From: Candidatus Moranbacteria bacterium GW2011_GWE2_35_2-
GTDB lineage: Bacteria > Patescibacteriota > Minisyncoccia > Moranbacterales > UBA9337
DNA length: 64,000 nt
Direction of reading: 5' to 3'
Assembly: GCA_000990585.1 (NCBI GenBank)
Contig: LBQD01000001.1
Coordinates: 207,276 to 271,275 of the forward strand
The notes beneath the pieces were generated by a model. That model had not been told where the DNA came from. It searched no databases and worked only from the letters and a program-made list of their open reading frames with translations. The translations under genes were made by a program, and so were the position numbers. Of this stretch, positions 4,191 through 63,280 are shown piece by piece; the first letter of the stretch is position 1; each line of letters opens with the position of its first letter.

Positions 4191-5498
4191 TTAAAAAACT
4201 GGCAAGATACAAGTCTCTCTCGCATTCTTTTCGCCTTCTTGAAAAAGCATATAGAAACGATTGAGACCGAAGCCTATTCCGGCCGTCGGTGGAAGACCGA
4301 ATCCTAATGCACTAAGATAATCCTCATTTATTACTCTTCCTGTTCTCTCGGATTGTTCTATTAAGAGAGAAGAAACTTTTTTCATGTCATTTTCATCAGT
4401 TGAAATAGTTGCCATATTCACCCCCATTGCAATAAAAAAGGCACTTTCAGACATTTTCTCGTTTTGAGAATTTCTTTTGGCAAATGGAGATATTCCCGAC
4501 GGAACATCCACTAAAAAAGTTGGCTCAATAAAATTGGGGGTGAAAATCTTATCTACTAATTTCATTGTCCAAGTAAATTCATCCATATCCTCGAAAAAGA
4601 CCCCAGAAAATTTTCTCGCCAACCAAGTAGCCGTGCATTTATCCCCTCTAATTCCCAGAAACTCAAGACAAGCTTCATCAAAAGTTTTCCTGGCAAAAGG
4701 AGGTTTAAAGCAAACTTCACTATTACCATCAAATATAGATGATTGCCCAGTGACCTTGGTTAAAACATGGAAAATCATTCGCTCCAATAACTGCATCATA
4801 TCGTGATAATTCTGGTTAACTGCATACAATTCCAGTAGAGTAAATTCCGGTAAATGCATCCTATCAATTCCTTCATTCCTGAAGGATTGAGAAAGTTCAT
4901 AGACCTTTTCAAATCCTGCTACCATCAACCTTTTGAGCTTTAATTCACTGGTTAAGCTCAAATAAAGTTTTTTTCCATTAGCCTTGCAAACCGTTTGAAA
5001 TGGTTCGGCTTGACCTCCTTCAAAATGTTCCTGAAGAATGCCTGTGACAAATTCCCTAAATCCTTCTTTTCTCAGAAATTGCCTGACAGCATCATTCAAT
5101 TGAGACATTATCAAAATATAATCAAAAAGAGATTTATTAGCAATAATATCCATAACTTTATTTCCGCTTCTGCTCAGATGATTAATTCCTCCGAGCTTAT
5201 TCTGAAGGACTTCACATCCTTCTTTCTCCAGATAAACTGATTTAATAGAAATAGATGGCTCTCCTTTTTGAGTTACGATTTTCTCTCCTTCAAAGAAAAT
5301 CAAACTACCTAAACCCACTTTTTTGAATTGTTCATAATCAGTAGTTAATCCTTTTTGAATCAATAGCTGAACATCTTCTTCTTGAAAGCGAACTTTCCAG
5401 AATGATATTTTTCCAAAATCTCTCTTTTTGAGAACTCTGGCATAACCAGAAAACTGCGTGCCGTTTTCAACCTTTTCAAGAAAATTCTTATCTCTCAT
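4191..5498 (-). CDS. lysS: Lysine--tRNA ligase (class II)
   Basis: N-terminal OB-fold anticodon-binding region. Class II motif 2 FRNEGIDRMHLPEFTLLELY and motif 3 GLPPTAGIGFGLNRFYML match the LysRS consensus. Confidence 0.8.
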   Translation of the reverse strand: MRDKNFLEKVENGTQFSGYARVLKKRDFGKISFWKVRFQEEDVQLLIQKGLTTDYEQFKKVGLGSLIFFEGEKIVTQKGEPSISIKSVYLEKEGCEVLQNKLGGINHLSRSGNKVMDIIANKSLFDYILIMSQLNDAVRQFLRKEGFREFVTGILQEHFEGGQAEPFQTVCKANGKKLYLSLTSELKLKRLMVAGFEKVYELSQSFRNEGIDRMHLPEFTLLELYAVNQNYHDMMQLLERMIFHVLTKVTGQSSIFDGNSEVCFKPPFARKTFDEACLEFLGIRGDKCTATWLARKFSGVFFEDMDEFTWTMKLVDKIFTPNFIEPTFLVDVPSGISPFAKRNSQNEKMSESAFFIAMGVNMATISTDENDMKKVSSLLIEQSERTGRVINEDYLSALGFGLPPTAGIGFGLNRFYMLFQEGEKNARETCILPVF

Positions 5499-8357: not shown

Positions 8358-9476
8358 TTATGGGCGGGTTTCAATATTTTTAATTCTGGGATATAAAATA
8401 ACATCCCGTATATTATCCTTTCCTAAACTCCAAGCAATAAATCTTTCAATACCCAAACCAAAACCTGAAGTGGTCTTATAATTAGGTTGTTTCCTTAAGT
8501 CAATATACCATTCATATGGTTTTGGCGAAATATTTTCTTGTCTTTTGAGAGATTCATATATTTCATTCACATTATCTTGGCGCTGTCCGGAACCAACCAC
8601 TTCTCCTCCAAAAGAATTTTCCACTATAGGTGGGAAAAGCAAATCAGCATTAATTGTCTTATTAGGATTTTTTGGATTCGGTTTTTGATAAAAAGGAACT
8701 CTATCCCTATCAAAATCAGTAAGCCAAATAGGGGTTGTTACTTTCAAGATTTTCATAAGCTCAATTTCGCCCTCACAACTGATGTCATTACCATGACTGG
8801 TAAAATTAACCAACTCTCTTTTATCATTTTTTACCAATATATCAATCGCCTCGTCAAATGTAATTTTTGGAAATTCTTTAGTTCTCATTATTACCTCCAT
8901 GTATCGGCGTGTTTTTTCTGAATTTTCACTTATTTTTTTAACAATATTATTCATTGTAAAAATCACTTCAGCTAATGTCCTTATATACCCCTCAACTATT
9001 GGCAACAAATCATCCAACCTACCCTTCATTTCCATTTCACAATGATAGAATTGATTAAGATGACGCTTATCAGAATCCTCTCCCCGCATAGACGGCAAAT
9101 AGCAATAAACTTTTTCTAATCCATTCAAAAGTAAGGGCTCAAATCCGAATTGAGACGAATCAACTAAAAAAGTTTTCAAATTTCCAAACTTTATAGGAAC
9201 AGGTTTCGAATCAGATCCTGGACCCATAGGAGAAGAAATACTAGGAGTGAACATGAATAAATCAATATTTTTAGCTTTTTGTTTTTCGCTAAAATAAAAA
9301 TCAGAAATAATTTTAATGTAATGCCTCAAAACTATCAAAGCACGATAATAATCGCTGTCGCACAAATGCTTATAGTGCTTATTGGGGCAATACTCAGGCA
9401 TCTTGTATTTTTTATTTCCCTTTTTGAATATAGAATCATCTCCAATGATTTCTTTTTTCAATTTTTTTAACAACAT
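8358..9476 (-). CDS. Class II aaRS catalytic-core paralog (AsnRS/AspRS-like, no anticodon-binding domain); possible archaeal-type asparagine synthetase (AsnA-like)
   Basis: 372 aa. Motif 2-like MRGEDSDKRHLNQFYHCEMEM and motif 3 GFGLGIERFIAWSLG. No N-terminal OB fold. Confidence 0.55.
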   Translation of the reverse strand: MLLKKLKKEIIGDDSIFKKGNKKYKMPEYCPNKHYKHLCDSDYYRALIVLRHYIKIISDFYFSEKQKAKNIDLFMFTPSISSPMGPGSDSKPVPIKFGNLKTFLVDSSQFGFEPLLLNGLEKVYCYLPSMRGEDSDKRHLNQFYHCEMEMKGRLDDLLPIVEGYIRTLAEVIFTMNNIVKKISENSEKTRRYMEVIMRTKEFPKITFDEAIDILVKNDKRELVNFTSHGNDISCEGEIELMKILKVTTPIWLTDFDRDRVPFYQKPNPKNPNKTINADLLFPPIVENSFGGEVVGSGQRQDNVNEIYESLKRQENISPKPYEWYIDLRKQPNYKTTSGFGLGIERFIAWSLGKDNIRDVILYPRIKNIETRP

Positions 9477-9560: not shown

Positions 9561-10193
9561 TTATAATGGAATTATTTCTATTGGCACGGCTTGATCAGCA
9601 TTTTCCATTGGCATATTCTCCTCTGCATCATCATCTTCTTTTGTAATATCGCCTTCTTCACTATTTAAATCCTCCTCTTGATTTTCCAATATGTCAATTT
9701 CCTCTTCCTCGCCAGCTTCTTCCAAAGCTTCCGCATCTTCCGCACAGTCATCTTCCTCAAGACATTTGTCGGTTTCTTCAATTGGATTTTGAGCGGAAAA
9801 AATAGCAGGATCATTGCAACTTGTTGCGGAATAATTTTCCATATTTTCCTCGGTGCAAAATTCCTCCCCGCAATCCTTCTCGCCCTCAGAGCACAAAAAC
9901 GGCTCACATTCTTCATCCGCATCCGGATCGCAAAAAGGAATATCACTGGCATTTCTTCTGACAACTTTGAAATACCAAACATCTTCTTCCATATTTCCCG
10001 TACAGGCTTCCCCTTCTTCGAATGATTCCGGATCACATTCCCACACAAAGCAGTTTTCACTATATGGGTCGCAATCAACTTGCGATTCGATAATATAATC
10101 CTTTTTAATTACTATCCTCCAAAATGTCGCTCCGATAGAAATAAAAATTAACGCAATGAAAACCGCTATCAGTATCTTTGATTTTTTATCCAT
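9561..10193 (-). CDS. Membrane-anchored Cys-rich, polyacidic protein, unknown function
   Basis: N-terminal signal-anchor helix (ILIAVFIALIFISIGATFW). At least 14 Cys in CDP/CEP-type repeats. Extremely D/E-rich C-terminal tail. Last gene of the 14541..9561 minus-strand operon. Confidence 0.5.
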   Translation of the reverse strand: MDKKSKILIAVFIALIFISIGATFWRIVIKKDYIIESQVDCDPYSENCFVWECDPESFEEGEACTGNMEEDVWYFKVVRRNASDIPFCDPDADEECEPFLCSEGEKDCGEEFCTEENMENYSATSCNDPAIFSAQNPIEETDKCLEEDDCAEDAEALEEAGEEEEIDILENQEEDLNSEEGDITKEDDDAEENMPMENADQAVPIEIIPL

Positions 10194-10234
10194 TTTTTTA
10201 AAAAAATTATATTAATTTTTATTTTACCGCCCTT

Positions 10235-12136
10235 TTATTTCTCCATTTTATTCTTACTGATTAAATTTCGTATCTCTTTCAAATCTACGTTTGGTTTTTT
10301 TCTGAGATTTTTGAATTTTTTTGGCGCAACATTTTGCAGTTGTGAAAGTTTTACAGGAATTCCGGAAGGAACATATATCGCCGGTTCAATTTTATTCTGA
10401 AACGGTTGAGTTTCTTCCGGTTCTTTTTTTGGAACAACCTTTTCCGCTTCCTTCTGTTTAGCTTTTGCTATCGTTCGCTGATAATCTTTAAGACAATCTT
10501 TGCAAAAAGTCGGTCTTTTTCCATCCGGCTTGAATGGAACCTTCACATTCGTTTCACAAGTGGCGCATTTGGCATCATACAAAACACGCTCAACATTACC
10601 ATCCTCAACATTTTGAGACTCAACTCTTTTTTCCGAAATCAAAACTTTATCCTGCGAGCGAGACTGAGATTGAACTTGCGTCGCCTGAGGTCGCAATTGC
10701 GGTTGTGGTTGTTGCCGTCGCGAAGAAACTTGCGGTCGAACAGATGGTTTTTCCCCGGACGCATTGTCTTTCTGATAACTTTTTCGAGTATTTTGACTGT
10801 CATTTTGATAATCATCATCTCCTCCATCAAAACTCACGCCACTATCAATAACCATTCCGCTCCAACGCGCAATCTTTTCTTCCACCTCTTTTTTATTACT
10901 ACCATACCTTTCTCTTGAATTGCGAATAATCTTTTCGAAATTTTTTTCCGTTTCCTTAATTTCCACCGGTGGCAATGTCGTCGCTGAAAAAGCATCTCCC
11001 GCTACTCCATCAATCATCAGCTTTAAATAAACATGATACTTTGGAAGATTAATGATATCATTAGCCATGAAAACTGGCTCAAATTCTTTTTCTAATTGCT
11101 CGGCATCTTCGGCTCCCACTCGAAAAGCAATAATTGTTCCAACGTTTCCAAAAACCGCATCACGCACCGTTGCATTGCCATCAATAACCAGCTGACTAAT
11201 GTATTGATGTGCCAAAGTAAGACTCAACCGATATTTCCGAGCCTCAGACAAAATACTAGCGAAAGATTCAGTTGCAAAATTTTGAAATTCATCCACGTGC
11301 AAATAAAAATCTTTTCTTTCGTCTTCCGGAATATCGACGCGTCCCATTACTCCCAATTGAATTTTTGTCACAATCATTCCACCCAAAAGACGCATCGCAT
11401 CTTCTCCGATTCTTCCCTTGGAAAGATTAACAATCAAGATTTTCTTGTTATCCATAATCTCCCGCATATCAATGGTAGATTTTGGTTGACCGACAATGTG
11501 CCGAATCACTGACGAAGAAAGAAATTGACCAACTTTATTTTGAATTGCCGCTACCGCTTCCTTTCTGAATCGATCCTCCCATTTGTCAAACTCATTAATC
11601 CAAAAAGATTTTACTACCGGATCTTTAATTTTCACATAAACCCTCTTCCGATAATCTTTGTCAGACATCATACGGCTTACTCCAAGCATTGTCGATCCGG
11701 GATAATCCAAAAGCGCCAAAATAGTATTATTCAGAATATATTCCATTCGAGGACTCCATACATCTGGCCAGATTTTTTTGAATACTCCCATCATACCGGA
11801 AGCTACTAGGTTTTTTTTATCTTCATCCACCGCCTCTAAAATATTAAAAGCAATTGGATATTCCGCATCTGACGGATTGAGATAAATCACATCGTTGATT
11901 CTTTCCGCCGGAACAGCCTTTAAAATTTTTTCCGCCGTATCTCCGTGCGGATCAATATATGCAACTCCGTGTCCATTGCGAATATCTTGAATCACCAAAT
12001 GCTCCAATAAATTGGTTTTTCCCATACCGGTTTTTCCAATCACATAAATATGTCTCCGTCGATCGTCGGTCTTAATTCCAAATTCCGTTTCGCGATTACG
12101 AAAATTTGTTTTAGCAAAAAAAGTTATATCGGACAT
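10235..12136 (-). CDS. P-loop ATPase of the TraG/VirD4 coupling-protein / HerA-DUF87 type, with a C-terminal Q/S/R-rich low-complexity tail and a C4 zinc ribbon
   Basis: Walker A IGKTGMGKT near the N-terminus. AYIDPHGD resembles the DPHGE/DPKGE box. Walker B FYLHVDEFQNF. RKYRLSLTLAHQYISQL resembles the TraG-D_C Qs.sQL motif. Tail QQPQPQLRPQATQVQSQSRSQ followed by CATCETNVKVPFKPDGKRPTFCKDC. No N-terminal TM domain. Confidence 0.65.
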   Translation of the reverse strand: MSDITFFAKTNFRNRETEFGIKTDDRRRHIYVIGKTGMGKTNLLEHLVIQDIRNGHGVAYIDPHGDTAEKILKAVPAERINDVIYLNPSDAEYPIAFNILEAVDEDKKNLVASGMMGVFKKIWPDVWSPRMEYILNNTILALLDYPGSTMLGVSRMMSDKDYRKRVYVKIKDPVVKSFWINEFDKWEDRFRKEAVAAIQNKVGQFLSSSVIRHIVGQPKSTIDMREIMDNKKILIVNLSKGRIGEDAMRLLGGMIVTKIQLGVMGRVDIPEDERKDFYLHVDEFQNFATESFASILSEARKYRLSLTLAHQYISQLVIDGNATVRDAVFGNVGTIIAFRVGAEDAEQLEKEFEPVFMANDIINLPKYHVYLKLMIDGVAGDAFSATTLPPVEIKETEKNFEKIIRNSRERYGSNKKEVEEKIARWSGMVIDSGVSFDGGDDDYQNDSQNTRKSYQKDNASGEKPSVRPQVSSRRQQPQPQLRPQATQVQSQSRSQDKVLISEKRVESQNVEDGNVERVLYDAKCATCETNVKVPFKPDGKRPTFCKDCLKDYQRTIAKAKQKEAEKVVPKKEPEETQPFQNKIEPAIYVPSGIPVKLSQLQNVAPKKFKNLRKKPNVDLKEIRNLISKNKMEK

Positions 12137-12163
12137 AGTTTTATTAAATCATTGAAACAATTT

Positions 12164-13483
12164 TTATATTGGCAAATTTGCCGGTGCCCCTCCTCGCTTA
12201 GATTCGACTTTTTTCACTGAAGGTGCCACAACTGTCATATCCGGAAAATGAAAAATGGTCGCCAATTCCTCGGTATTGAGAAAAAATTTTGTTCCGGTCG
12301 GATCACGATCTTTGTACCTTTGAAATATTTTACGCTGGCGAAAAAGTGCGCGCATTTTTCCTCCTAAATAAACTCCATATGTCTTCGTTGCATTATCATG
12401 TTTAAATCCGTTCAAATTGGAATCGGAAAATTGGCGAATACCTCCCATAAAAGCTCCTATAACCGAACGATCAAGATTTTCTCTTTTTCCCAAAACAAGC
12501 AATCTGATTTTAGTTAGAAAAACCGTCTTACCCATTGATTCTTCGATCGCTTTCATCACCTCTTTTTCTCCGGGAGTGAGTCTGAATTCCAAAGGAGTTT
12601 GATCCGCCTTATCTTCCTTGGACGGAGCAAATTCCACTGGAGCAAAAATACCTTGAAAAATTCCCTTTATTACATCTGCAATATCTTTTCCGATACTGTT
12701 GAATACTCCGGGCTTTTCTTTCTTGACTCTTCCTGCTAATTTATCTATCAATGCTTTTCCGGAATTATAGTAATCAAGTTCTTCCGGAATTATAATAATT
12801 TGAAACCAAACCTGCTGTCCCGGTCCAATCGTTCCCATAGCTTCAACCAACGAAGACATCGGGTCAATCATTTTTCCAGTTACACTTTCTTCAAACCAGC
12901 GATAACTGCGCAAGGGATAAGCATCCGGCTTTATGAGCATAAAATCTGTTCCCCATAAATCCCAACTCTTATTCGGCACCAATCTCGGAACGTTATTTAT
13001 ATAATCCGAAACTTCCAAAATTTCCGCATTCGGATATTGTGCGTAAACATGCGATTCAACCAATTTTCTGTTTTGTTTCGTAGTGCGAATATAAAAATGA
13101 ACCTGTCCAGCATCACTCACTAATTCAAGACTAAAACTCAATGTAAGAGCGCCATCAACATACAAATCTTTCGCGCTAAGACCCTTATACACACCAGCAA
13201 GACCATTGTATATGGATTCCATCGGTTGCGGGCTTCTTTCTAGCTCACGAGGGGGAATAATTTCTAACAACGTCCAATCCAAAGAACCAACAAAATTATT
13301 TTGGACAAAATCCATCCAAAGCAGTTTGAATAAATAATAAAAAACGGGAGGAAGCACTATAAACCAAATTTTAGACAACAAAAACCACCCGCCTGTAATA
13401 CTTTGACCCAAATTTTGAAAAGATTCTCCGATTATCTCAAACATTTTATTTTTTATTTTTTCAGAAATTATACCTGCCCACAA
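12164..13483 (-). CDS. Membrane protein with an N-terminal TM hairpin and a large soluble domain, unknown function (operon partner of the ATPase)
   Basis: Hydrophobic segments GGWFLLSKIWFIVLPPVFYYLFKLLW near the N-terminus. Flanking genes lie 27 bp and 14 bp away on the same strand. Confidence 0.5.
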   Translation of the reverse strand: MWAGIISEKIKNKMFEIIGESFQNLGQSITGGWFLLSKIWFIVLPPVFYYLFKLLWMDFVQNNFVGSLDWTLLEIIPPRELERSPQPMESIYNGLAGVYKGLSAKDLYVDGALTLSFSLELVSDAGQVHFYIRTTKQNRKLVESHVYAQYPNAEILEVSDYINNVPRLVPNKSWDLWGTDFMLIKPDAYPLRSYRWFEESVTGKMIDPMSSLVEAMGTIGPGQQVWFQIIIIPEELDYYNSGKALIDKLAGRVKKEKPGVFNSIGKDIADVIKGIFQGIFAPVEFAPSKEDKADQTPLEFRLTPGEKEVMKAIEESMGKTVFLTKIRLLVLGKRENLDRSVIGAFMGGIRQFSDSNLNGFKHDNATKTYGVYLGGKMRALFRQRKIFQRYKDRDPTGTKFFLNTEELATIFHFPDMTVVAPSVKKVESKRGGAPANLPI

Positions 13484-13497
13484 AAACCTTCCGGTTA

Positions 13498-14541
13498 TTA
13501 TTTTTTCACAGTATATCGATTTCTATCCACTCGAACAAAAAAATTGTTCAAATTTATCATAATTGTAGATTTTTTAACTTTTCGACTTGCTAAAACTTTA
13601 TTCAAAATTTCATCCTTGCTAAGAGGCTTTCCGCTTTGCTTGAAAATATCATCCAAAACATCCTTAACTGTTCCACGCTTATATCCCCACTCTGAAAGAG
13701 CATATACGCCTCGTCCAACCAAAACAAATCTTTTATCCTTAATTAATTCATTATGCACTGTCTGTGGATGAGATTTTTTCTTACTAAGTCCGTGTTTGTC
13801 GATAAATTCGGCGACTTTGGTAAAATGAAGGGGCTTTCCATATTCTTTCATAATCAAATACGCTTTTTCCCTTGCTCCCTTTGGATTGATATCACTCCAA
13901 TCAATCATTCCCCATTTTCCAAAATTATTGATTTTTATTTCCTTGCAAACATCCAAATAATCCAAAATCACATCCTTTTTAATAGTGGAATCAATGCTGG
14001 AAATTTCTTTTATAACTTCTTCCGAAGAAATTGCAGACTTTCTTTCCATCAAAACATTTTTTGCGATATCTTTGCATTTATTCCATTGCTCGAAATTAAA
14101 ATCCTTCAAATAAAAGGACTTTTCTATTTCCAAACCTCCCACTCGAAACTCAACGCCATTGATCACTTTCAAAAAAAACTTTATTGCGCCTTGCGTTTTG
14201 ACATTTTGACTCAAATTATTCAAAAGCTTTTCTTCCTTGATTATACCATTACTTTTTTCGATTGCAAACTTGATCTCCTTTTCAATTAACAGAATGTTTT
14301 TATCTCCCTTCTTTTTTATTTTCGCAATCGCCTCTCGTATAATTTGACGAACTCTTTCTCTGGTTATATTATATTTTTTTCCAATACCCTCCAATGTGGT
14401 TGAATATCCGTCAAGTACTCCAAATCTCATCTTAATTATTTTATCCGCTCTCTCTGGCAGAAAATCCAAAACAGCGTTCATATATTTAACCGCCGCAAAA
14501 TCCCTCTTTTCGGAAACTTTAACTTTTTTACTCTTATTCAT
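13498..14541 (-). CDS. DNA-binding protein with an N-terminal sigma-70 region-4-like HTH and C-terminal HARE-HTH-like winged-helix domain(s)
   Basis: TLEGIGKKYNITRERVRQIIREAIAKIKKKG matches sigma70 region 4. KPLHFTKVAEFIDKHGL ... KRFVLVGRGVYALSEWGY matches the HARE-HTH pattern seen in RNAP delta. A second weaker copy follows. First gene of the operon. Confidence 0.55.
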   Translation of the reverse strand: MNKSKKVKVSEKRDFAAVKYMNAVLDFLPERADKIIKMRFGVLDGYSTTLEGIGKKYNITRERVRQIIREAIAKIKKKGDKNILLIEKEIKFAIEKSNGIIKEEKLLNNLSQNVKTQGAIKFFLKVINGVEFRVGGLEIEKSFYLKDFNFEQWNKCKDIAKNVLMERKSAISSEEVIKEISSIDSTIKKDVILDYLDVCKEIKINNFGKWGMIDWSDINPKGAREKAYLIMKEYGKPLHFTKVAEFIDKHGLSKKKSHPQTVHNELIKDKRFVLVGRGVYALSEWGYKRGTVKDVLDDIFKQSGKPLSKDEILNKVLASRKVKKSTIMINLNNFFVRVDRNRYTVKK

Positions 14542-14614
14542 ATTTATTGAGAAAAATAAAATTATTTAAATTGTCAAATTAGAATAACACATATTTGGGA
14601 TAATTGTCAAGAGA

Positions 14615-14643
14615 TTGATTTTAAACTTTTCAATTGGTATAAT
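14615..14643 (+). promoter_or_regulatory. Putative sigma70 promoter of dnaB
   Basis: TTGATT (14615..14620), a 17-nt spacer, then TATAAT (14638..14643). About 22 nt upstream of the dnaB ATG. The ORF-track TTG start at 14615 is actually this -35 box. Confidence 0.4.
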
Positions 14644-20452: not shown

Positions 20453-21715
20453 TTAGTGTACCGCGCAACTGATACACGGGTCGTATGCCCGAATAAAAGC
20501 GCGCATTTTTTTCTCTTTATCTTTATCCGAAAGATTCAAAATTTCCGGCAAATACTTTCGAATATCATCTTCCAAATGACTTAAAAATTGGGCGGTTGGG
20601 GATATAATATTCACATTTTTAACATATCCCTTGCTATCAATATCAACATGATAATAAAGTGTTCCGCGTGGAGCCTCCACTGCTGCCGCTCCGGATCCTT
20701 CACGAACTTCATATTTTTTCGTCAGAGCGTTTTCCAAATTACTATTAATCAGAAGTCGCAACATTCTGAGTGATTCCTCTATCGAATGAACAACTTCTAC
20801 CATTTGATACAAAACATTATGAAAAGGATTATAATCTGGCAAAGAAAAACCAAGCGAATCCAAATATTGTTTAGCCTTGGGGTTTAGTTTTTTATGATGA
20901 TTATTCACTCTCGCAATCGCTCCCACCATATAGCTGGTTTTTCCGTCCGATTCCACTCTCTTTATTACCTCTTTGGGGCGTTGAAATTCATGAAAATTTT
21001 TCTCAAATTTTAAAACCGGAATATGTAATCCCTTATTGGATATTAAATCTCCGTCATAAATTGCATATTCTCCGCGTGCGTCCATGCAAACATATTCTGT
21101 CTCTCTTTCAAATCTTGGCAATTTTATCCCCTTGAAAAATTCCGCTACCTCAAAGGCTGTAGAAAGCGCTTCTTCGCCCTGTTTGATTAATTTTTGAACT
21201 TCCTCTATTTTTGGAACTTTCTTGAAACCGCCTACTTCATTGGTTAGCGGGTGCACTACGCGACCACCGATTATTTTCACAATTTCCATTCCATATTCTC
21301 GAAGTTTAATTGCTTTTTGTGTTTCCTCCGGATATTTCTCCACCAATTTCAAATCATTATCAATATCTAAAAAATCCGCTAAAGACAAGAAAAAAAGATG
21401 TAGGCAGTGAGAATGAATAATCTGTCCCAATTCCAATAATTTTCGAAGATTAACGGCTTCATTAGAAACACGCACGCCCATTGCGTTTTCAATAGATTTA
21501 ATTGAAGTAAGATTGTGCACCACAGGACATATTCCACAAATTCTTTGTGCTACTATTGGCATATCAGTATAATGCCTTCCGACCAAAATTCCTTCGATCA
21601 AACGAATGCCTTCTTTAACTTCAATTTTCGCCGACTTCACATCTCCGGAAAGAACACTCGCCATAAACCCAGCGTGACCCTCAATTTTGTTAATATGATT
21701 CAGTTTTATTTGCAT
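20453..21715 (-). CDS. [NiFe]-hydrogenase large (catalytic) subunit, group 3-like
   Basis: N-terminal RICGICPVVH and C-terminal DPCISCAVH Ni-Fe ligand motifs. 420 aa. Confidence 0.85.
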   Translation of the reverse strand: MQIKLNHINKIEGHAGFMASVLSGDVKSAKIEVKEGIRLIEGILVGRHYTDMPIVAQRICGICPVVHNLTSIKSIENAMGVRVSNEAVNLRKLLELGQIIHSHCLHLFFLSLADFLDIDNDLKLVEKYPEETQKAIKLREYGMEIVKIIGGRVVHPLTNEVGGFKKVPKIEEVQKLIKQGEEALSTAFEVAEFFKGIKLPRFERETEYVCMDARGEYAIYDGDLISNKGLHIPVLKFEKNFHEFQRPKEVIKRVESDGKTSYMVGAIARVNNHHKKLNPKAKQYLDSLGFSLPDYNPFHNVLYQMVEVVHSIEESLRMLRLLINSNLENALTKKYEVREGSGAAAVEAPRGTLYYHVDIDSKGYVKNVNIISPTAQFLSHLEDDIRKYLPEILNLSDKDKEKKMRAFIRAYDPCISCAVH

Positions 21716-21769
21716 AAATAATATCTTTTAATTTATCTTATTTATCCTATATGTATGTTTTATGCTTCT

Positions 21770-22522
21770 TTATTTGTTGTTTTTTTCTTCAATATCATCT
21801 CGCAGTCCAAATATTTCCGTCGTATTTTCGAATTCTTCATCAGTCATAAAATTTTTAAGTGTCGCGCGCATTGCTTTCACATTGGCGGTCGGACGCAATC
21901 CGCGACAACCTTGGCACATCATCTTTGAAGTCGGACAAACCGCATCACACCCTCCCTGAATCATCGGACCAAAACAAGGTTTTTTGTCCAAAAGTAAGCA
22001 TCTATTTCCTCTTTTTTTGCATTCCACACATACCGGCTGATCGGGAATCGTCGGAATTTTTCCTTCAAGAAGTTCCGGAAAATATTTCAAAAATTCTTCC
22101 CCGGTAATCGGACAGCCGGGAAAAGTAAAGTCAACTTTAACAAAATTATCCACCTCTTTAACTTCCGGATTATCAATTCCTTGAACATATTTATATACGT
22201 GCTTAATAGTATTTTTCTGCTCTTGGTAATTTTTTATTTCCGGCACGCCTCCCATTGCCGCACAATTTCCCAAAACCACTAAAAATTTACTTCTCTCTCT
22301 CAATTTTTTTAATGTTTCAATATTTTCTTCGGTTGTCGGATTACCTTCCACAATACCAATATCCAATTTCTCTCCCGCATCTTCTTCATCTTCAAGTAAG
22401 CGAAAATCCACCATCTCAACCTCATTCATCAAATCCAAAAACTTCTGCCCCAAATCCAAAAGCGCGAATTGACACCCCTCGCAAGAAGTCAAACTTACAA
22501 TAGCAATTTTTTGTTTTTGCAT
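21770..22522 (-). CDS. [NiFe]-hydrogenase small subunit with C-terminal extra Fe-S cluster cysteines
   Basis: MQKQKIAIVSLTSCEGCQ proximal-cluster motif. GNCAAMGG. C-terminal Cys clusters (CVECKKRGNRC, CFGPMIQGGCDAVCP). Start set at the internal ATG (22522) to avoid the overlap with the pilin gene created by the ORF-track start at 22576. Confidence 0.75.
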   Translation of the reverse strand: MQKQKIAIVSLTSCEGCQFALLDLGQKFLDLMNEVEMVDFRLLEDEEDAGEKLDIGIVEGNPTTEENIETLKKLRERSKFLVVLGNCAAMGGVPEIKNYQEQKNTIKHVYKYVQGIDNPEVKEVDNFVKVDFTFPGCPITGEEFLKYFPELLEGKIPTIPDQPVCVECKKRGNRCLLLDKKPCFGPMIQGGCDAVCPTSKMMCQGCRGLRPTANVKAMRATLKNFMTDEEFENTTEIFGLRDDIEEKNNK

Positions 22523-22536
22523 AATTATAAAATTAT

Positions 22537-23124
22537 TTAATCTTCCGTAATAATCCCTGAAAATGCAGCTCGACAATTAGCTCTAATTGAAACAGCATTA
22601 TATAAAGTTCCGACAGCGATATTCACTATACGACATCCGGCATGAGTACAGCAAAAAAGATTGCTATCGTCAGAAAATCCATCATTGTTTTTATCCTCAA
22701 TAATAGATACAACAAATCTACCAAGGGAATATTGCGATCCGACATATCCAGTATATCTATAGCCATGAGTTGATATATCAGGCCAATCGTATGCTAAATC
22801 TTCCGTATTATTATTAGTAGCATTTCCACAAAGAGAAGTTCCTGCAACCGGAATAGCTAAGTTCCCTCCTCCGCAATCATTACTACTAAGATGAACATCA
22901 AGATTTCCCTGGCAACGAACACCAAGATTCTGTGTCACGCATTCTACAAGAGCCGCTTGTGCGGATCGCAATGTAGCATATGCCACTTTTTGCCTTGCTT
23001 TGTCCCTAGCGCTATTCAAACTAACTAAAATAACGCTCGCTAAAATTCCAATAATTGCAATAACAATCAAAAGTTCGATTAATGTGAATGCTTTTTTGTT
23101 TTTTGTTTTTATTTTATTTTCCAT
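22537..23124 (-). CDS. Type IV pilin-like protein (prepilin N-terminal cleavage/methylation domain)
   Basis: KKAFTLIELLIVIAIIGILASV class III signal sequence. Cys pairs in the C-terminal region. Confidence 0.75.
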   Translation of the reverse strand: MENKIKTKNKKAFTLIELLIVIAIIGILASVILVSLNSARDKARQKVAYATLRSAQAALVECVTQNLGVRCQGNLDVHLSSNDCGGGNLAIPVAGTSLCGNATNNNTEDLAYDWPDISTHGYRYTGYVGSQYSLGRFVVSIIEDKNNDGFSDDSNLFCCTHAGCRIVNIAVGTLYNAVSIRANCRAAFSGIITED

Positions 23125-24958: not shown

Positions 24959-26203
24959 ATGCGAACATTCAATTTTCCAAATATAAAACACAAAAAAACA
25001 ATCCTCGCTCTCGGAGCCGAATCCGCCGGCAATTTTTCAGTTTTCCAAAACGAAATTATCTATTTTTCCCAAAATTTCAACGATCTTCTCGATGAAGAAA
25101 ATTTCAAAAATTACAAAAAAGAATTGCGTGATTTTCTGCAAAATAACAATATAAAGCCAAATATAATTCTCACTGACCTACATCCGGATTTCAAAACCAC
25201 GCAATTAGGAATCGAACTTTCTAAAAAATACAAAGCTAAACACATCCAAATTCAACACCATCTCGCCCATATATACTCACAAATTTCCAATTTCCAATTT
25301 CCAATTTCCAAACAATTTTCAAATTCCAATGTTCAAATTCCAAATTTATTTTATGGAATCGCGCTGGATGGCACCGGATATGGCACTGATGGAAAAATTT
25401 GGGGCGGAGAGGTGTTTTACCTGCAACCTTACAACCTACAACCCATTAGAATCGGACATATTGAGAATCAAATTATGATTGGCAGGGAGTTGGCAATTCG
25501 CGAACCAGCGAGAATGCTAATATCCGTTCTGGATAAATTTTCAAACAAAAAAGAAATTTATAATTTTATCAAAAAACATTATTCCCGCAATGAATTTGAA
25601 CTTTTGCACAATCAACTCCGGCAAAATTTCAACTGCATAGAAACTTCCAGTTGCGGAAGAGTTTTTGATGCAGTTTCTGTTCTTTTGGGATTTTGCGGAA
25701 ATGAAAGAAGTTTCAAACACAAAGCTTCACACTTATTGAAAAAAAATTCCACTACTCCTTACAAAGATCTGAAGCCGAAAATAATTGTCAAAAAACAAGC
25801 CGTAAGAAGCAAAAAACAAAAAATATTCAATAATCAATATATAATAGTCAATGAATATACGAAATATATTCTAAATACAACCCATCTTTTTAAATATTTA
25901 ATTAAAAACTTACATAAAAACAAAAAACGGCTCGCTGCTACCGCGCAATTATACATCGCCCAAGGACTAAAAAAGATAATCGAAAAACACATAGAACACA
26001 ACATAAAACATAAAACAAAGGATGTTGTTTTATCGGGAGGTTTGAGCAAAAATAAAATAATTTTAAACTATTTTAAAAACAAAAAATCCGAGAAATTTTC
26101 GGACAATAAACTGCAAAATGCAATTCCTCGTGACGATGCAGGAATTAGTTTTGGACAAATAATTTATTACTTGAAAAATTCAAATCCTAAAACTTCCAAG
26201 TAA
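24959..26203 (+). CDS. HypF-like carbamoyltransferase, Kae1-like C-terminal domain only
   Basis: LALGAESAGNFSVFQN, TDLHPDFKTTQ and IQHHLAHIYS match the HypF Kae1-domain motifs (ALGAE, DLHPDY.ST, VQHHHAH). Acylphosphatase, Zn-finger and YrdC domains are absent. Contains a heptamer repeat insertion. Confidence 0.6.
   Translation: MRTFNFPNIKHKKTILALGAESAGNFSVFQNEIIYFSQNFNDLLDEENFKNYKKELRDFLQNNNIKPNIILTDLHPDFKTTQLGIELSKKYKAKHIQIQHHLAHIYSQISNFQFPISKQFSNSNVQIPNLFYGIALDGTGYGTDGKIWGGEVFYLQPYNLQPIRIGHIENQIMIGRELAIREPARMLISVLDKFSNKKEIYNFIKKHYSRNEFELLHNQLRQNFNCIETSSCGRVFDAVSVLLGFCGNERSFKHKASHLLKKNSTTPYKDLKPKIIVKKQAVRSKKQKIFNNQYIIVNEYTKYILNTTHLFKYLIKNLHKNKKRLAATAQLYIAQGLKKIIEKHIEHNIKHKTKDVVLSGGLSKNKIILNYFKNKKSEKFSDNKLQNAIPRDDAGISFGQIIYYLKNSNPKTSK
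25284..25311. repeat. (TTTCCAA)x4 heptanucleotide microsatellite inside the hypF-like gene, followed by degenerate copies to about 25345
   Basis: Four exact tandem copies. Reverse complement of the prmC repeat unit TTGGAAA. Encodes SNFQFPISKQ. Confidence 0.8.
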
Positions 26204-35895: not shown

Positions 35896-36915
35896 TCAAC
35901 AAATTCGCGGGATTAATTTTCCTTTTGGCATTTCAATCGGACGCAAACTTCCTAAATTAGTTTTTAAATATACACCCCTTTCATTCCCCTTTTTAGTTCC
36001 CGTTTTTCCCTTTTCCACCCTCCCGATAACCTTTGCCTCCAAATTAAATCTTTGCAAAATCTTCAAAACTTTTTTAATATTTTTTGGAGAAACGCTGGCA
36101 ATAAATCTTCCTTCACTCGCCAAAGAAAAAACGTCCAATCCTAAGAGATTTGTTATCGCCATAACCTCCTTCTTATACGGCAAGCTTTTTTCTTCCAAAA
36201 CAACTTTCACTCCTGATTTTTCCGCCATCTCAACCAAATTCGCCGCCAACCCTCCGCGCGTTGGATCTTTACAAGCATTCAAATATTTTCCGACTTTTTC
36301 AATCTCCTTATTAAAAGGCTTGCTATCACTTTTTATTTTAGTTTTATAGTTGAATCTTTTTGCTAAAAGTGCTACTGTATGCTCTCCCAAATCACCGGAA
36401 GAAATAATATAGTCTCCATTTTTAATTCCATTGTTGGAAATTATATTATCCGCCAATCCAACTCCGGCAGTGGTAATCTCAATTTTGTCAATTTTTCCTT
36501 TTTCGCTCACTTTTGTGTCGCCCGTTACTACCGGTACGCCCGATTTTTTGGAAACCTCTGCGATTGATTGGACTATTTTTTGCAAATCACTTTTTGGAAA
36601 ACCTTCTTCAACCACGATACTGAGTGAAATTCCAATTGGATTGGCACCCATTACCGATAAATCATTGATCGTTCCGCTCATTGCAATTTTACCAATATCT
36701 CCACCCGGAAAAAATATCGGATCAACAATATACGCATCTGTTGTAAAAACTAATTTTTTATTACCTTTCAATTTAAAAACCGCTGCGTCATCTTCACAAT
36801 TATTCCATTTTTTATTCTTACTGGAAAAATCAAGGATCTTCCGAATTTCGGAAATCAACTCCCCTGATTTATATCCGCCATCACCCTCATCTAAAGTTAT
36901 ATTTTCATTTCGCAT
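35896..36915 (-). CDS. hypE: Hydrogenase maturation factor HypE
   Basis: DDAAVFKL, AFTTDAYIV.PIFFPGGDIGKIAMSGTINDLSVMGANP match the HypE/AIR-synthase-related consensus. Start set at the internal ATG (MRNENITL); the 42-aa upstream extension of the ORF track is hydrophobic and implausible. Confidence 0.7.
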   Translation of the reverse strand: MRNENITLDEGDGGYKSGELISEIRKILDFSSKNKKWNNCEDDAAVFKLKGNKKLVFTTDAYIVDPIFFPGGDIGKIAMSGTINDLSVMGANPIGISLSIVVEEGFPKSDLQKIVQSIAEVSKKSGVPVVTGDTKVSEKGKIDKIEITTAGVGLADNIISNNGIKNGDYIISSGDLGEHTVALLAKRFNYKTKIKSDSKPFNKEIEKVGKYLNACKDPTRGGLAANLVEMAEKSGVKVVLEEKSLPYKKEVMAITNLLGLDVFSLASEGRFIASVSPKNIKKVLKILQRFNLEAKVIGRVEKGKTGTKKGNERGVYLKTNLGSLRPIEMPKGKLIPRIC

Positions 36916-37068
36916 AATAATGAATAAAAAAATACATTTTATTGGTTTGAATTCCAAATTATGATATGATTTTAACATAATCATAGTCGGGCTATAAATA
37001 TATCCTAACATTAAAACAATAAGATACCAACTAGACAAAAAGGTCTGCAGAAAAAAATTACATTACTA

Positions 37069-43820: not shown

Positions 43821-46046
43821 ATGGAAAAAATAAAATCTAAAAAAAAGAAAATTCGAAAAATGGAAAAAATTGTCTCCAATATCTTAGTCGTGAGCGATCA
43901 CGAACTAAAACCCTATATTGAAATGCTCGACTACGCCCCGGAAAACATTACCCATAAATCACTAGGGAGACTTTTGGGGTTTTTTGAAATTAAGGATGAG
44001 AATGAAGATTCTGCTTACATTGTTAACTTTCTCGCTTCAGTAGCAAAGAAAGAATATTTCATCAACACCAAGAGAGGTCCGATAGAAAGTTTTGAAGCAG
44101 CGCTAAACAAGATAAATTTAGCATTAGCTGAAATCGCCAAACATGGAAACGTTAACTGGTTAGGAAAACTTGATAGTGCCCTATGCGCAATAGAAGAAAA
44201 CAATTTACATTTTAGCGTTTCAGGAAACGGAAAAGTACTTCTAATGAGAAACGGGAATTTAACCGAGATAAGTCAAGGACTTGCAGAAAAAGATAGTACC
44301 GGACCAGATTATCTCAATCCAATGAAAACTTTTGTAAACGTTTCTAGCGGACGACTTGAAGATAAAGATAAAATCATTATAACAACAGACGACATTTTCC
44401 AAATTTTTTCCTTAAATGAACTCAAAAGAGGAGCTTTGCAATTTTCACAAGAAAAATTCATTCAGTTCATTAAAACTGCGCTTATTAACGAACTTGACAT
44501 CGCCGGCACTATAATAATAGACATCCGCAGAAAAATCATAGAAGCAAAAGAATCCGTTTCTTTTGCTCAAAAAATGGTCGCCGAGGAAAATGAAAAAGAA
44601 CTAAATGTTTTTAGCAGTAAGATATTTGAAGAAAAAAACAATAAAAAAAACGCCTCCGGAAAAATAAACGATACAAGTAAGTCTGTCGAAAAAGAAAACA
44701 ACCATGAGAATAAAATTGAATATACCGATGAGAAAACCAAACATATATACCTAAAAGAAGATCCGATAGAAATTCCCGTAAAAAAAGAAATAATTGAACC
44801 ACTCAAAGAATTTTTACGAGAAAAATTTCTTGATTTTTCCTATTGGTTAAAAAACGATTTCAGAAGATTGGCGTTGCAAACAACAAAAAAAATGGTTTTC
44901 AACTACGAAAAATATTCACAAATTTTAAAAAAAATAATCTTGCGAACAATCTCACAATGGAAAGAAAAAAAGGAATCCAATCCCATCTCCCATCAAAATT
45001 ATTTTCCGGAAAAAAACACATCCGCAGTAAAAATAAAAACTTTTTTCTCTCTTTTCCGAAAAATAAAATCAAACGTCAGAATTACTATTCCAAATTTTGG
45101 AAAAATAAAATTAATTATCCGAAAAATGACCTATTCGCAAAGGATTTATTCGCTACTCATACTCCTTATAATAATAATTCTACCGCTCTTTTTCCGAAAT
45201 AACCCGCAGACTCTTCCTGATACTCCGCGAGAAATTGAAACAAACGTATTATCTTTCGCATTAAGTGAAGAAAAAAACATCCAACCAATTGATTTGACAA
45301 AAAAAATATTTTTTTCAGAAAAATCCCACCTATTAACGGTCGAATCGGACGGCCGATTATTTTTCGTTTTTGATGATAAAATAATTGAATTTACACCAGA
45401 AAACAATCAAGAATCCGCTTCTTTTAATCTTCCGGAATTTGGCTCAAAAGCAGAAATAGCAACTTTTATGCCGGACTTGCATCTAATTTTAATTTTAACC
45501 GAACAAAAAAAAGTAATCAGCTTTAATACGATTTCAAGAAAATTCCAGCAAACAAATTTTACCGCTCCGGAAGGTGCGCAAATCGCAGATATGGAAACAT
45601 ATCTTACTTATCTGTATTTACTCGACAGCGCCAATGACCAAGTATATATTTATCCACGAGCCGAAGGAGGGTTTAGCGAAAAAGAATCCCGCCTCAAAGA
45701 GACATTCGATATTCAATTATCTGATAATATGACTATTGATGGAAATATATACATATCTTCCGAAGAAAAAATCCTAAGCTTCTTTCAAGGGAAAAAGACA
45801 GGGTTTAATCTGGAACAATCAAAAACCCCGATAAAAAACAATCTGATATTTACCTCTCAAATGAATAATTTTATTTATTCTGTTGATAAAGAAAACGGGC
45901 GCTTGATAAAATTTACAAAAAAAGGAGAGATCGCCAAACAATATTACTCGGAAAAAATAAAATTAACGGAGAATTTTACTGTCAACAATGCTGATACAAA
46001 AGCATACATCTCGATACCGGATGGAATTTATCAACTTGATATCTAA
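43821..46046 (+). CDS. Large hypothetical protein: N-terminal cytoplasmic domain, one TM helix, C-terminal extracytoplasmic repeat region
   Basis: 741 aa. TM segment YSLLILLIIIILPLFF in the middle. Very Lys-rich. No confident domain assignment. Confidence 0.45.
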   Translation: MEKIKSKKKKIRKMEKIVSNILVVSDHELKPYIEMLDYAPENITHKSLGRLLGFFEIKDENEDSAYIVNFLASVAKKEYFINTKRGPIESFEAALNKINLALAEIAKHGNVNWLGKLDSALCAIEENNLHFSVSGNGKVLLMRNGNLTEISQGLAEKDSTGPDYLNPMKTFVNVSSGRLEDKDKIIITTDDIFQIFSLNELKRGALQFSQEKFIQFIKTALINELDIAGTIIIDIRRKIIEAKESVSFAQKMVAEENEKELNVFSSKIFEEKNNKKNASGKINDTSKSVEKENNHENKIEYTDEKTKHIYLKEDPIEIPVKKEIIEPLKEFLREKFLDFSYWLKNDFRRLALQTTKKMVFNYEKYSQILKKIILRTISQWKEKKESNPISHQNYFPEKNTSAVKIKTFFSLFRKIKSNVRITIPNFGKIKLIIRKMTYSQRIYSLLILLIIIILPLFFRNNPQTLPDTPREIETNVLSFALSEEKNIQPIDLTKKIFFSEKSHLLTVESDGRLFFVFDDKIIEFTPENNQESASFNLPEFGSKAEIATFMPDLHLILILTEQKKVISFNTISRKFQQTNFTAPEGAQIADMETYLTYLYLLDSANDQVYIYPRAEGGFSEKESRLKETFDIQLSDNMTIDGNIYISSEEKILSFFQGKKTGFNLEQSKTPIKNNLIFTSQMNNFIYSVDKENGRLIKFTKKGEIAKQYYSEKIKLTENFTVNNADTKAYISIPDGIYQLDI

Positions 46047-62700: not shown

Positions 62701-63280
62701 GAAAACTTTGCGCCTTGGCAATATTGGAAGAAAAAATATTTCCCCAATTTTCGGTCATTATTATTGGCGAAGAGGAAAAACACTCATCAGGAAAATCATT
62801 CCAGTTGTAATATGTTCCCAATTCCACAAAATCGACATAATGAAGTATCGAAGAATCCGCGCCTGCCAAAAAAGATCTGTCGTTAAATTCTATCATTCCT
62901 CGGCTCGGCGCAAAACATTCATCATCAAAAAAAGAAGGATCAACCGGCGGAGAAGTGAAAGTGATTCTTTCCTGTTCTGTTCCCTCCGCGACAATTCTTC
63001 CATAATAAACAGCAAGGCTTTCTCCAAGAATTATTCTCGTTCCTTTCTCAATTGTGAGTGTGGCACCTCCGACTACAACTACCGGAAGCTCGATGGAAAG
63101 ATCCACCTCTCCGCTCCAAACAACATCTTCGTCGATTACATAATAGTTTTCATAATCCAGCCACTCGCCTTCCTCCGAACTTGCGGTAATACTCGCCGAA
63201 TAATGATAATGCGATAAATTAAACCCTACCGGAGAAAATACCATCAAGAAAACAAGAATACTAACGCTGATTTTTTTCAT
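59729..63280 (-). CDS. Giant secreted protein (1183 aa) with an LCAT/PGAP1-like alpha/beta-hydrolase (lipase/acyltransferase) domain
   Basis: Signal peptide MKKISVSILVFLMVFSPVGF. FAYDWRQS (the LCAT-family YDWR motif) and the nucleophile elbow TIVAHSNGGLLAK (GxSxG-like). Long flanking beta-rich regions. Confidence 0.55.
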   Translation of the reverse strand: MKKISVSILVFLMVFSPVGFNLSHYHYSASITASSEEGEWLDYENYYVIDEDVVWSGEVDLSIELPVVVVGGATLTIEKGTRIILGESLAVYYGRIVAEGTEQERITFTSPPVDPSFFDDECFAPSRGMIEFNDRSFLAGADSSILHYVDFVELGTYYNWNDFPDECFSSSPIIMTENWGNIFSSNIAKAQSFPVSDDGEVKNSALKFVSGRLDIKNSTFKNNLYADIETYIESYPNEEKSFLQVSDSNFFGNGQNTALISTALNYSEYSEILGRDKNLVRLENNWYGSPDGPALAPDFSSGGEKLIGDFTLIDWSAEKFICKTCTSNVLFLPGIKSSRLYKEGMLGSEDKLWIPNYFGDDMEELRMDEDGKSIEDVYTRDILDEVAIPVIGGNIYKTFLEKLDGLKSENIINDFRSFAYDWRQSVEDIAQSGTLYPEEEMKSALEQIEELAESSKNEKVTIVAHSNGGLLAKSLMMELEKSGATDKIDKIIFVATPQIGTPVALLAMLYGYDEPALAGTLISQEDARTLAENMPGAYGLLPSEEYFDRIENPFVSFSSENTRYKSFKDAYGDDIDDFDEWKDFLTGDGDGRQEPENSEVDWENTLRENLLDEATEMHKRLDSWIPPENVEAIQIAGWGLDTISGVKYSEREKYDCFPTGGKVPSCVKSGEYAPTYQPQFTVDGDKTVVAPSALMIPENDNVKRYWVDLFEYNKGITIDRGHKNILEVDNLQEFISNIIANKSGDLPKYIKDSRPDDYENASSRLRMSLHSPLDIHLYDEKGNHTGPKKIQVGGQEYEVFEEGISNSYYYQFGERKYVGFGSGENVRVELEGYGAGTYTLKVEEAQPISGGEETVSAIVFANLPTTEETTAVLEISEQGLMEMPVLQVDIDGDGQQDYQAEPIVEVGVMPDSNPPQTFASAQGEQGLAGWFVGNVAVSFSAEDGENEIEKTQYSLDGGASWEVYENPIEISGEGIFNVRYFSTDTAGNEEDVKEIEVKMDKTAPEGKIFFNPDSKKLEVFGIDNLSGDVSVRMKERIQKPPLRDRAKDILNRFLQANREKEKNSTLIAVLIDKAGHSTIIDIKEKNRGNSNIVYSEIDSISYDGVKTDVSNSLFQCHWNFDWKKNKFQILNAHLTNGSDFVRSFYFSNRNETRIWENGKKTQKIPGLTVPYLQTEKGSIKIFY

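Follow-up and report, generated by a model that had tools for sequence, protein, structure and literature searches.

The window analysed here, a 64-kb stretch of DNA from Candidatus Moranbacteria bacterium GW2011_GWE2_35_2-, carries a minus-strand locus of four genes, termed A to D, and we find that two of them, B and C, probably encode one membrane-anchored coupling-protein-type ATPase (VirD4/TrwB type, FtsK-HerA superfamily) divided between two polypeptides. The Patescibacteria, which are dependent on host cells, account for a large share of bacterial diversity. Their essential type IV secretion system (T4SS) poses a puzzle in the field: its cluster holds no coupling protein, and orphan homologues of type IV coupling proteins (T4CPs) occur in nearly every genome (PMC12102498). 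Our analysis adds that a DUF8128 module of predicted VirB4-like fold belongs to these orphans, either as a second polypeptide or fused to the ATPase, and that they are usually paired with an essential sigma/delta-like gene for a putative DNA-binding protein. The four genes are the following.

13498..14541, minus strand: gene A, 347 amino acids (aa); sigma-70 region 4, then winged-helix modules including a HARE-HTH domain (RNA polymerase delta-like)
12164..13483, minus strand: gene B, 439 aa counted from TTG; DUF8128 (PF26449), predicted to be membrane-anchored
10235..12136, minus strand: gene C, 633 aa; VirD4/TrwB-type P-loop ATPase (T4CP family) without a membrane segment
9561..10193, minus strand: gene D, 210 aa; predicted to be membrane-anchored, with 12 Cys and an acidic tail

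The ATPase encoded by C is 100% identical to UR69_C0001G0229 of this organism. The coordinates agree with an original prediction, made before our analysis, that described four co-oriented minus-strand open reading frames (ORFs) with gaps of 14, 27 and 41 bp (A-B, B-C and C-D, respectively) and a divergent dnaB; the latter begins at 14615, with a 73 bp region between it and gene A. In the database, B starts at an ATG 13 codons downstream of the TTG, at coordinate 13444, which gives a protein of 426 aa and leaves 53 bp between A and B. This ATG is likely the true start.

Profile searches place C among the coupling proteins. It exceeds the Pfam cut-offs for TrwB_AAD_bind (41.9 bits, cut-off 20.5), T4SS-DNA_transf (32.5 bits, 20.1), DUF87 (29.3 bits) and TraG-D_C (25.1 bits, 22), which bears out its earlier designation as a TraG/VirD4-type ATPase. 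In hhalign comparisons it aligns with R388 TrwB over 259 columns (probability 94.4, E 8.9e-8), and with TrwK/VirB4 at the P-loop only; its best PDB profile matches are DotL and TrwB. The NCBIfam model VirB4_CagE (TIGR00929) reaches 16.4 bits against a cut-off of 643 and AAA_10 reaches 14.4 against 27.5, and the match to the archaeal DNA-importing ATPase CedD of NCBIfam is weak and confined to the P-loop. Two elements of the protein can be located precisely.

12014..12037, minus strand: Walker A motif GKTGMGKT of C, aa 34-41, by motif scan
10493..10567, minus strand: CxxC-x17-CxxC treble-clef zinc ribbon of C, aa 524-548, holding all four Cys of the protein

Besides the Walker A motif, scanning recovers the DPHGD motif (aa 62) and the TraG-D_C-like motif, here HQYISQL (aa 310), that had been proposed for C; the proposed Walker B motif corresponds to the Walker B-like FYLHVDEF at aa 277-284, which was read by eye, the pattern scan giving no match. 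A hydropathy scan of C detects no hydrophobic segment, in keeping with the earlier statement that it lacks an N-terminal transmembrane (TM) domain. The tail is also as first described: a Q/S/R-rich tract (~aa 430-516) separates the ATPase core from the zinc ribbon, which is followed by a conserved basic peptide at the C-terminus. The ribbon is recognised by Pfam zf_Tbcl_2 (E 2.9e-10) and by TIGR04272 (E 2.7e-11), and is present in 65 of the 68 complete C orthologues. More than 8000 homologues of C exist, with ~65% identity among the matches listed, which come mainly from Moranbacteria/Parcubacteria; across classes, C remains ~63% identical.

B belongs to a large family with a well-predicted fold. 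PF26449, named DUF8128, is recorded on 120 of 120 B homologues among the matches listed, including the 100%-identical P0271, and the assignment of B rests on these precomputed homologue annotations, the local Pfam copy having no such model. The DUF8128-type family comprises 1,794 clusters at 50% identity (E <= 1e-3). Its presumed anchor lies near the N-terminus.

13313..13384, minus strand: hydrophobic anchor of B, aa 21-44 (426-aa numbering), with Pro-Pro in mid-stretch; by hydropathy scan

B had been described as a 439-aa protein with a TM hairpin: the length holds if counted from the TTG, while only one hydrophobic stretch is found and a two-helix hairpin is not clear. The AlphaFold2 model of B (77 sequences; predicted local distance difference test, pLDDT, 90.8) consists of a helix at aa 2-54, α/β domains and a disordered C-terminal tail that ends in a conserved AP.NLP motif. 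When this model is compared with the PDB by Foldseek, every one of the best 14 matches is a TrwK/VirB4 chain from plasmid R388 (E 4.3e-6 to 2e-3), and unrelated folds begin at E > 0.01. Among the viral models of BFVD, it matches phage G gp156 (E 4.9e-18) with homologues in phages JL and Slash, and phage G gp155 (E 2.9e-7). The latter is a VirB4/TraG-P-loop-type ATPase whose N-terminal region has a B-like predicted fold. As gp155 and gp156 share it, the same predicted N-terminal fold precedes both kinds of ATPase. These phage relatives emerge from profile and fold searches; tblastn of B against phage genomes returned nothing. In the phage G genome, gp155 (L077, 696-2345) lies directly upstream of gp156, so that a VirB4-like and a VirD4-like ATPase are encoded side by side.

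The two proteins that are separate in the window occur elsewhere as one chain. Residues 29-320 of phage G gp156 (825 aa) match the B profile (hhalign probability 98.3) and residues ~380-760 match C (E 3e-44); likewise PHROG 5156, a family of 824 positions with function unknown, contains B at 75-367 and C at 407-805. The gp156-type phage proteins align from residue 29 and apparently have no membrane anchor. A metagenome scan with an alignment of fused B and C yielded 74 further usable loci, which carry no taxonomy: B and C are split in 64 of them and lie in one reading frame in the other 10. The only fused protein translated, that of locus L130 (912 aa), has a single N-terminal TM helix. Both the single chains of these loci and of gp156 and the TM helix of L130 speak for the original suggestion that the upstream protein could supply the anchor that C lacks. 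The Southlakia protein SEML1_0293, with 921 aa and TrwB_AAD_bind at 402-719 (PMC10633639), has the same fused B-C layout by length and domain positions. We also considered whether split genes are joined by readthrough or frameshift and rejected this, as B and C are in the same frame in 24 of ~73 loci, just what chance alone would predict.

A more distant relative points to the possible origin of this arrangement. A plasmid of Embleya (Actinomycetota) encodes an 812-aa homologue whose C-like part (~aa 396-781) is 32% identical to C, and whose N-terminal half is collinear with the B profile (E 3e-4), the alignment covering the ELA...H.P and tail motifs; this protein is likely a B-C-like fusion. 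Its gene is flanked by one for a VirB4-like ATPase and one for a Replic_Relax protein, PrgI and NlpC/P60 genes being close by, and by this gene content the locus can be read as a monoderm conjugation cluster with the homologue in the coupling-protein position. Such a context agrees with the published derivation of the Patescibacteria T4SS from monoderm conjugation machinery (PMC12102498).

Some fused loci show features of their own. In L130 (822-6622) and five related loci (L128, L132, L135, L137 and L140), two paralogous fused DUF8128-T4CP-like genes lie in tandem, encoding ~830 and 830-1040 aa, with a conserved ORF of ~170 aa and no Pfam match between them. The tandem pair adjoins secD and secF in L130, and ORFs of similar size on the same strand occupy this place in the other five. 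Two fused paralogues per genome would fit the published figure of about two T4CP homologues per genome. A scan of viral contigs with the B profile returned one truncated fused fragment only, a 171-aa ORF on a viral-class IMG/VR contig (L076, 21-536) in which the last ~37 B-like residues continue in frame into the first ~87 C-like residues, followed by a stop. On the Pontibacillus megaplasmid NZ_CP062975 (L165, 4893-8169), a B-like ORF runs into the first C-like ATPase residues. What remains of the ATPase is spread over 2 kb as three separate pieces, and this fused gene thus appears interrupted or decayed; a sigma-factor-like helix-turn-helix (HTH) gene lies downstream.

The association extends to gene A. 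A scan with B of one genome per GTDB species gave 75 loci, mostly from Moraniibacteriota and Paceibacterota. C follows B in 73 of them, and A precedes B in 68 of the 70 loci with enough upstream sequence, the two exceptions being an overlapping start and a 2-kb insertion. This order persists at B identities as low as 32-35% and with different flanking genes, dnaB being near the module in only 5/75 loci, and a cluster representative with 33% B identity again shows A, the DUF8128 gene and the ATPase in order, here beside secDF. In the metagenome set, A adjoins B-C in 30 of the 48 loci with room upstream. Since the A-B-C order persists with changing flanks and D follows in two of the 75 genome loci, the conserved unit across Patescibacteria is A-B-C, and D is an addition to it. 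The first description of four genes as one unit does not survive this comparison, and the co-occurrence that it proposed to examine is widespread for A, B and C and fails for D. In three distant lineages secD/secF adjoin the module (L079, 935-1828; L099, 2452-3369; L130, 7699-9937), which may reflect an ancestral neighbourhood or a functional hint.

D itself has an N-terminal hydrophobic anchor and 12 Cys, and D/E residues make up 44% of its last 70 positions. The portrayal of D as membrane-anchored and polyacidic thus stands, with the count of about 14 Cys corrected to 12. It has no family match in Pfam, NCBIfam, PADLOC or PHROGs. The two loci with D after C (L002 and L003) are close relatives with 78-80% identity; elsewhere the next gene, judged from its N-terminal sequence, is predicted to be mnmA, a gene for a TM-coiled-coil protein, a glycosyltransferase gene or pgk. 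D is a lineage-specific passenger outside the conserved module, possibly co-transcribed with it. The idea of a minimal module for surface assembly or secretion, made up of A to D with the last as its substrate or surface component, could draw on the tight gene spacing, on the lack of a terminator-like site between C and D and on the predicted anchor of D. However, a component restricted to two relatives that are > 78% identical, apparently replaced after C by other genes elsewhere and unmatched in four libraries leaves the idea without a basis; it is largely refuted by synteny and we consider it very doubtful.

Gene A combines two recognisable modules.

14311..14469, minus strand: Sigma70_r4 helix-turn-helix of A, aa 25-77, Pfam E 8.5e-14
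13687..13869, minus strand: HARE-HTH winged helix of A, aa 225-285, Pfam E 6.4e-12

The fusion of a sigma-70 region-4 HTH to HARE-HTH noted at the outset is therefore well founded, and both domains are retained in a family of ~350 aa. Every PDB sequence match of A is to sigma region 4 of primary sigma factors; of the Pfam sigma domains solely Sigma70_r4 matched, sigma region 2 was not found, and the NCBIfam sigma models give 24-60 bits against cut-offs of 189-800. Lacking sigma regions 2 and 3, A should be unable to serve as a sigma factor. The NCBIfam model RNAP_delt_lowGC scores 41.6 bits with a cut-off of 42, i.e. at threshold, and A has no acidic tail, D+E amounting to 13% of the whole protein. 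We propose that A is a sigma-region-4 plus triple winged-helix protein that would bind DNA and/or RNA polymerase, both recognisable modules being of the kinds that contact the polymerase in sigma and delta.

Published data on Southlakia allow the members of the module to be compared. Directly upstream of SEML1_0293 lies SEML1_0294, whose 349-aa product has Sigma70_r4 over residues 27-72 and a HARE-HTH over residues 225-283 and is divided there into one tri-helical domain and three winged ones, and both genes are flagged in Table S1 as core, Patescibacteria-enriched families (PMC10633639). In transposon sequencing (Tn-seq), this homologue of A is essential at every time point and the ATPase SEML1_0293 is non-essential at every time point (PMC10633639). 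The normalised reads of SEML1_0293 nevertheless fall from 5817 to 2940 and then 1372, about four-fold over two passages, while those of the neighbouring SEML1_0292 stay flat (PMC10633639), which suggests a mild fitness cost. The B-C pair is inherited vertically as core genes and is dispensable for growth in co-culture.

Several of our results, and some published ones, weigh against a B-C coupling machine with A as its partner. The TM-scores of B against VirB4/TrwK are low (0.32-0.36), and no sequence signal connects B to TrwK, or the B profile to anything in the whole PDB; the modelled resemblance of B to VirB4 N-terminal regions would be at fold level only. The AlphaFold2 model of C, built from 50 close homologues, is poor (pLDDT 54.6) and gave no fold comparison. 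T4CPs have an all-alpha domain inserted in the nucleotide-binding domain; at this low reliability, the model of C has an all-helical stretch at aa 105-230. The N-terminal alignment of the Embleya homologue to B is weak (probability 39). Relaxases are rare in Patescibacteria (PMC12102498), and Wang et al. 2023 describe an essential Southlakia T4SS without a recognisable coupling protein or relaxase (PMC10633639); given that the T4SS is essential there and the ATPase dispensable, the essential job of the T4SS needs no ATPase of this kind. Finally, A is absent within 4 kb of B-C in 18 of the 48 metagenome loci and, as checked with a hidden Markov model of the A family, stands beside only 1 of the 10 fused genes.

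These absences of A also support the main competing explanation, in which A is an essential housekeeping transcription factor and a mere neighbour of an unrelated coupling-protein pair that is dispensable and possibly vestigial, the two having no more in common than an inherited gene order or one promoter. The opposite Tn-seq outcomes of the two genes within one experiment and the likeness of A to the polymerase-contacting parts of sigma and delta fit it as well. Being essential by itself and absent beside many B-C pairs, A is presumably at least in part a general factor. Yet a mere neighbour would hardly be expected to remain adjacent to B in 68/70 genome loci despite changing flanks and B identities down to 32%, an adjacency that recurs in the 33%-identity representative and in Saccharibacteria, and the conservation of C across classes together with that of its ribbon does not make the pair look vestigial. 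We regard the mere-neighbour explanation as somewhat unlikely, and as the one to be taken most seriously beside our own.

Based on the domain identities, the split/fused relation, the synteny and the published essentiality data, we propose a model in which B and C assemble into one coupling-protein-type motor. B would provide the membrane anchor and a cytoplasmic α/β collar, with the fold that is found N-terminal to VirB4-class ATPases, and C would provide the nucleotide-binding domain, which by analogy with TrwB may form a hexameric ring. From this ring a flexible tail would extend, ending in the zinc ribbon, a probable binding site for nucleic acid or for a protein partner. The pair would descend from a monoderm conjugative coupling protein that is now part of the core genome and encoded apart from the virB4 cluster, and it would feed its substrate, with DNA the foremost candidate, to a membrane channel, either the chromosomal T4SS or another conduit, in an accessory role that is not essential for growth. 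A, usually transcribed just upstream, may act as a DNA-binding adaptor or regulator of this motor in addition to its own essential role.

The same ATPase could instead work in DNA uptake, as a cytoplasmic competence motor that, independently of the T4SS, takes the place of ComFA and pulls DNA through ComEC. The comEC gene can be deleted in Southlakia, where competence is thus present and dispensable (PMC12857230), as SEML1_0293 is, and the string 'ComFA' does not occur in the Southlakia annotation tables; the DNA-translocase ancestry of C, its zinc ribbon and the weak P-loop match to CedD would suit such a motor. However, neither the window nor the loci examined have a competence gene next to the module, the dprA near SEML1_0293 lies four genes off, and the soluble phage and the actinobacterial conjugative homologues point to export or coupling, not import. 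We consider uptake through ComEC quite improbable. A further, bolder proposal is that A-B-C is a Patescibacteria-specific, T4SS-independent DNA-handling machine, in which A, as an essential factor made of polymerase-contacting modules, would deliver DNA or transcribing complexes to a membrane-anchored VirB4/VirD4-hybrid motor. We rate it as unlikely. If it were true, the module might be, for example, the cytoplasmic motor, so far missing, by which nucleic acid is scavenged or exported where the cell meets its host, and the label 'T4CP' on thousands of proteins of the Candidate Phyla Radiation (CPR) would be functionally misleading.

Membership of C in the FtsK-HerA superfamily raises the question of whether the locus encodes a segregation pump replacing FtsK, or is a remnant of a mobile element or anti-phage system (MADS-like, phage-derived). 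C matches the PADLOC component mad8 (E 9.2e-20) and, weakly, HerA, and it has relatives in Bacillus phages and on plasmids; a literature search found no paper on the mad8 component. For the locus as a whole, PADLOC gives single-component matches only, mad8 and HerA for C and the sigma-region-4 part of MzaA as the sole match for A, with none for B or D, and we rejected a known defence system for want of a full component set. As to FtsK, a translocase type with an FtsK_SpoIIIE motor domain, a gamma winged helix and a 4TM N-terminus, C has no Pfam match to the motor domain and Southlakia has a complete and essential FtsK of its own in the annotation tables; replacement of FtsK was rejected on these grounds, and the original concern that C might turn out to be an FtsK with conserved synteny elsewhere is dispelled. 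The family is also core and near-universal in the phylum, the GC content of the locus is ordinary, and its neighbours are housekeeping genes, with no integrase or transposase domain among the scanned ORFs. Either variant is exceedingly unlikely.

The surroundings of the locus were surveyed by scanning 38 window ORFs against Pfam, 34 of them outside the four-gene locus. No VirB4, VirB6 or relaxase domain was found among them, as had been predicted, nor any other T4SS component, and the locus is not a canonical T4SS. The window holds no second copy of A, B or C. One regulatory element is a candidate.

14581..14610, minus strand: putative promoter-like site upstream of A, in the 73 bp shared with divergent dnaB, TTGACA, 18 nt, TG-TATTCT; by consensus scan only

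The minus strand has no terminator-like hairpin inside the four-gene cluster, and this, together with the promoter-like site, fits co-transcription of A-D without proving it.

Elsewhere in the window, two class II aminoacyl-tRNA-synthetase-like genes lie four genes apart (8358-9476 and 4191-5498, both minus strand). The 372-aa protein among their products consists of the catalytic core only (tRNA-synt_2, aa 75-365) without an anticodon-binding domain, and may be a paralogue of the amino-acid-ligase or asparagine-synthetase type. NiFe-hydrogenase large- and small-subunit-like genes, a HypF gene with the C-terminal part only and a HypE/AIRS-like gene (20453-22576, minus strand; 24959-26203, plus strand; 35896-37038, minus strand) make up a hydrogenase gene set within a reduced Patescibacteria genome. 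A 741-aa ORF on the minority strand (43821-46046, plus strand) has no Pfam match at E <= 1e-5, and a 1183-aa protein (59729-63280, minus strand) contains an LCAT/PGAP1-like α/β-hydrolase (lipase/acyltransferase) domain at ~aa 410-690.

Parts of the module have been encountered before. Quiñonero-Coronel et al. counted 5,713 VirD4-type homologues in 2,918 of 3,035 Patescibacteria genomes, 148 of them near virB4, and could not exclude exaptation of these proteins (PMC12102498). The module is thus not wholly the undescribed system first suggested, the ATPase having been counted there and both A and the ATPase flagged in Southlakia (PMC10633639); what is new with respect to the searchable literature is the DUF8128 partner, the split/fused relation and the linkage to the sigma-region-4/HARE-HTH gene. 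In that literature we found no mention of DUF8128 and no paper on HARE-HTH together with CPR. Our results provide the first structural and contextual annotation of DUF8128 and PHROG 5156, and they make pieces, interfaces and mutants concrete at a time when Southlakia and Nanosynbacter have become genetically tractable. Should the motor be a mere dispersed relic of conjugation, the value of the finding would be one of annotation only.

The module can finally be set beside the systems it resembles. A recalls the delta subunit of RNA polymerase (RpoE, Bacillota) through a HARE-HTH at the threshold of the delta model, but this domain is N-terminal in delta and followed by a long acidic C-terminal tail, whereas in A it lies at aa 225-285. 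With the sigma-70 factors A shares an N-terminal HTH typical of region 4, not regions 2 and 3, and it has two further winged helices that set it apart from delta and sigma alike. Among solved structures, the predicted fold of B significantly matches VirB4 chains alone (TrwK of R388), and B-C follows the VirB4 plan of an N-terminal α/β domain and then a P-loop domain. A separately encoded homologue of the VirB4 N-terminal domain is moreover known in TrsD of pGO1 and is abundant in Patescibacteria (PMC12102498). VirB4 nevertheless differs, in that C aligns with it at the P-loop only, B has no sequence similarity to TrwK, and a separate, genuine VirB4 is encoded elsewhere in 80% of Patescibacteria genomes. 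The 'VirD4-like' proteins of phage G (gp156) and of SPO1-like phages (PHROG 5156) combine a B-like and then a C-like half in one chain, apparently without a membrane anchor, and add architecture, not mechanism. Classical T4CPs (VirD4/TrwB/TraD/DotL) differ from the pair in six respects: here the anchor is on a separate polypeptide, B; a ~350-aa α/β DUF8128 domain, absent from classical T4CPs, lies between anchor and ATPase; C carries a C-terminal zinc ribbon; the 38 scanned ORFs include no T4SS partner; the C family is chromosomal, found almost throughout the phylum and conserved there by vertical descent; and the homologue is dispensable in Southlakia, where the T4SS is essential. What the module has in common with these T4CPs is the P-loop nucleotide-binding domain and the TraG-D_C motif region of C, the predicted membrane anchoring of the whole B-C assembly, and an actinobacterial relative that appears to occupy the coupling-protein position in a conjugation cluster.

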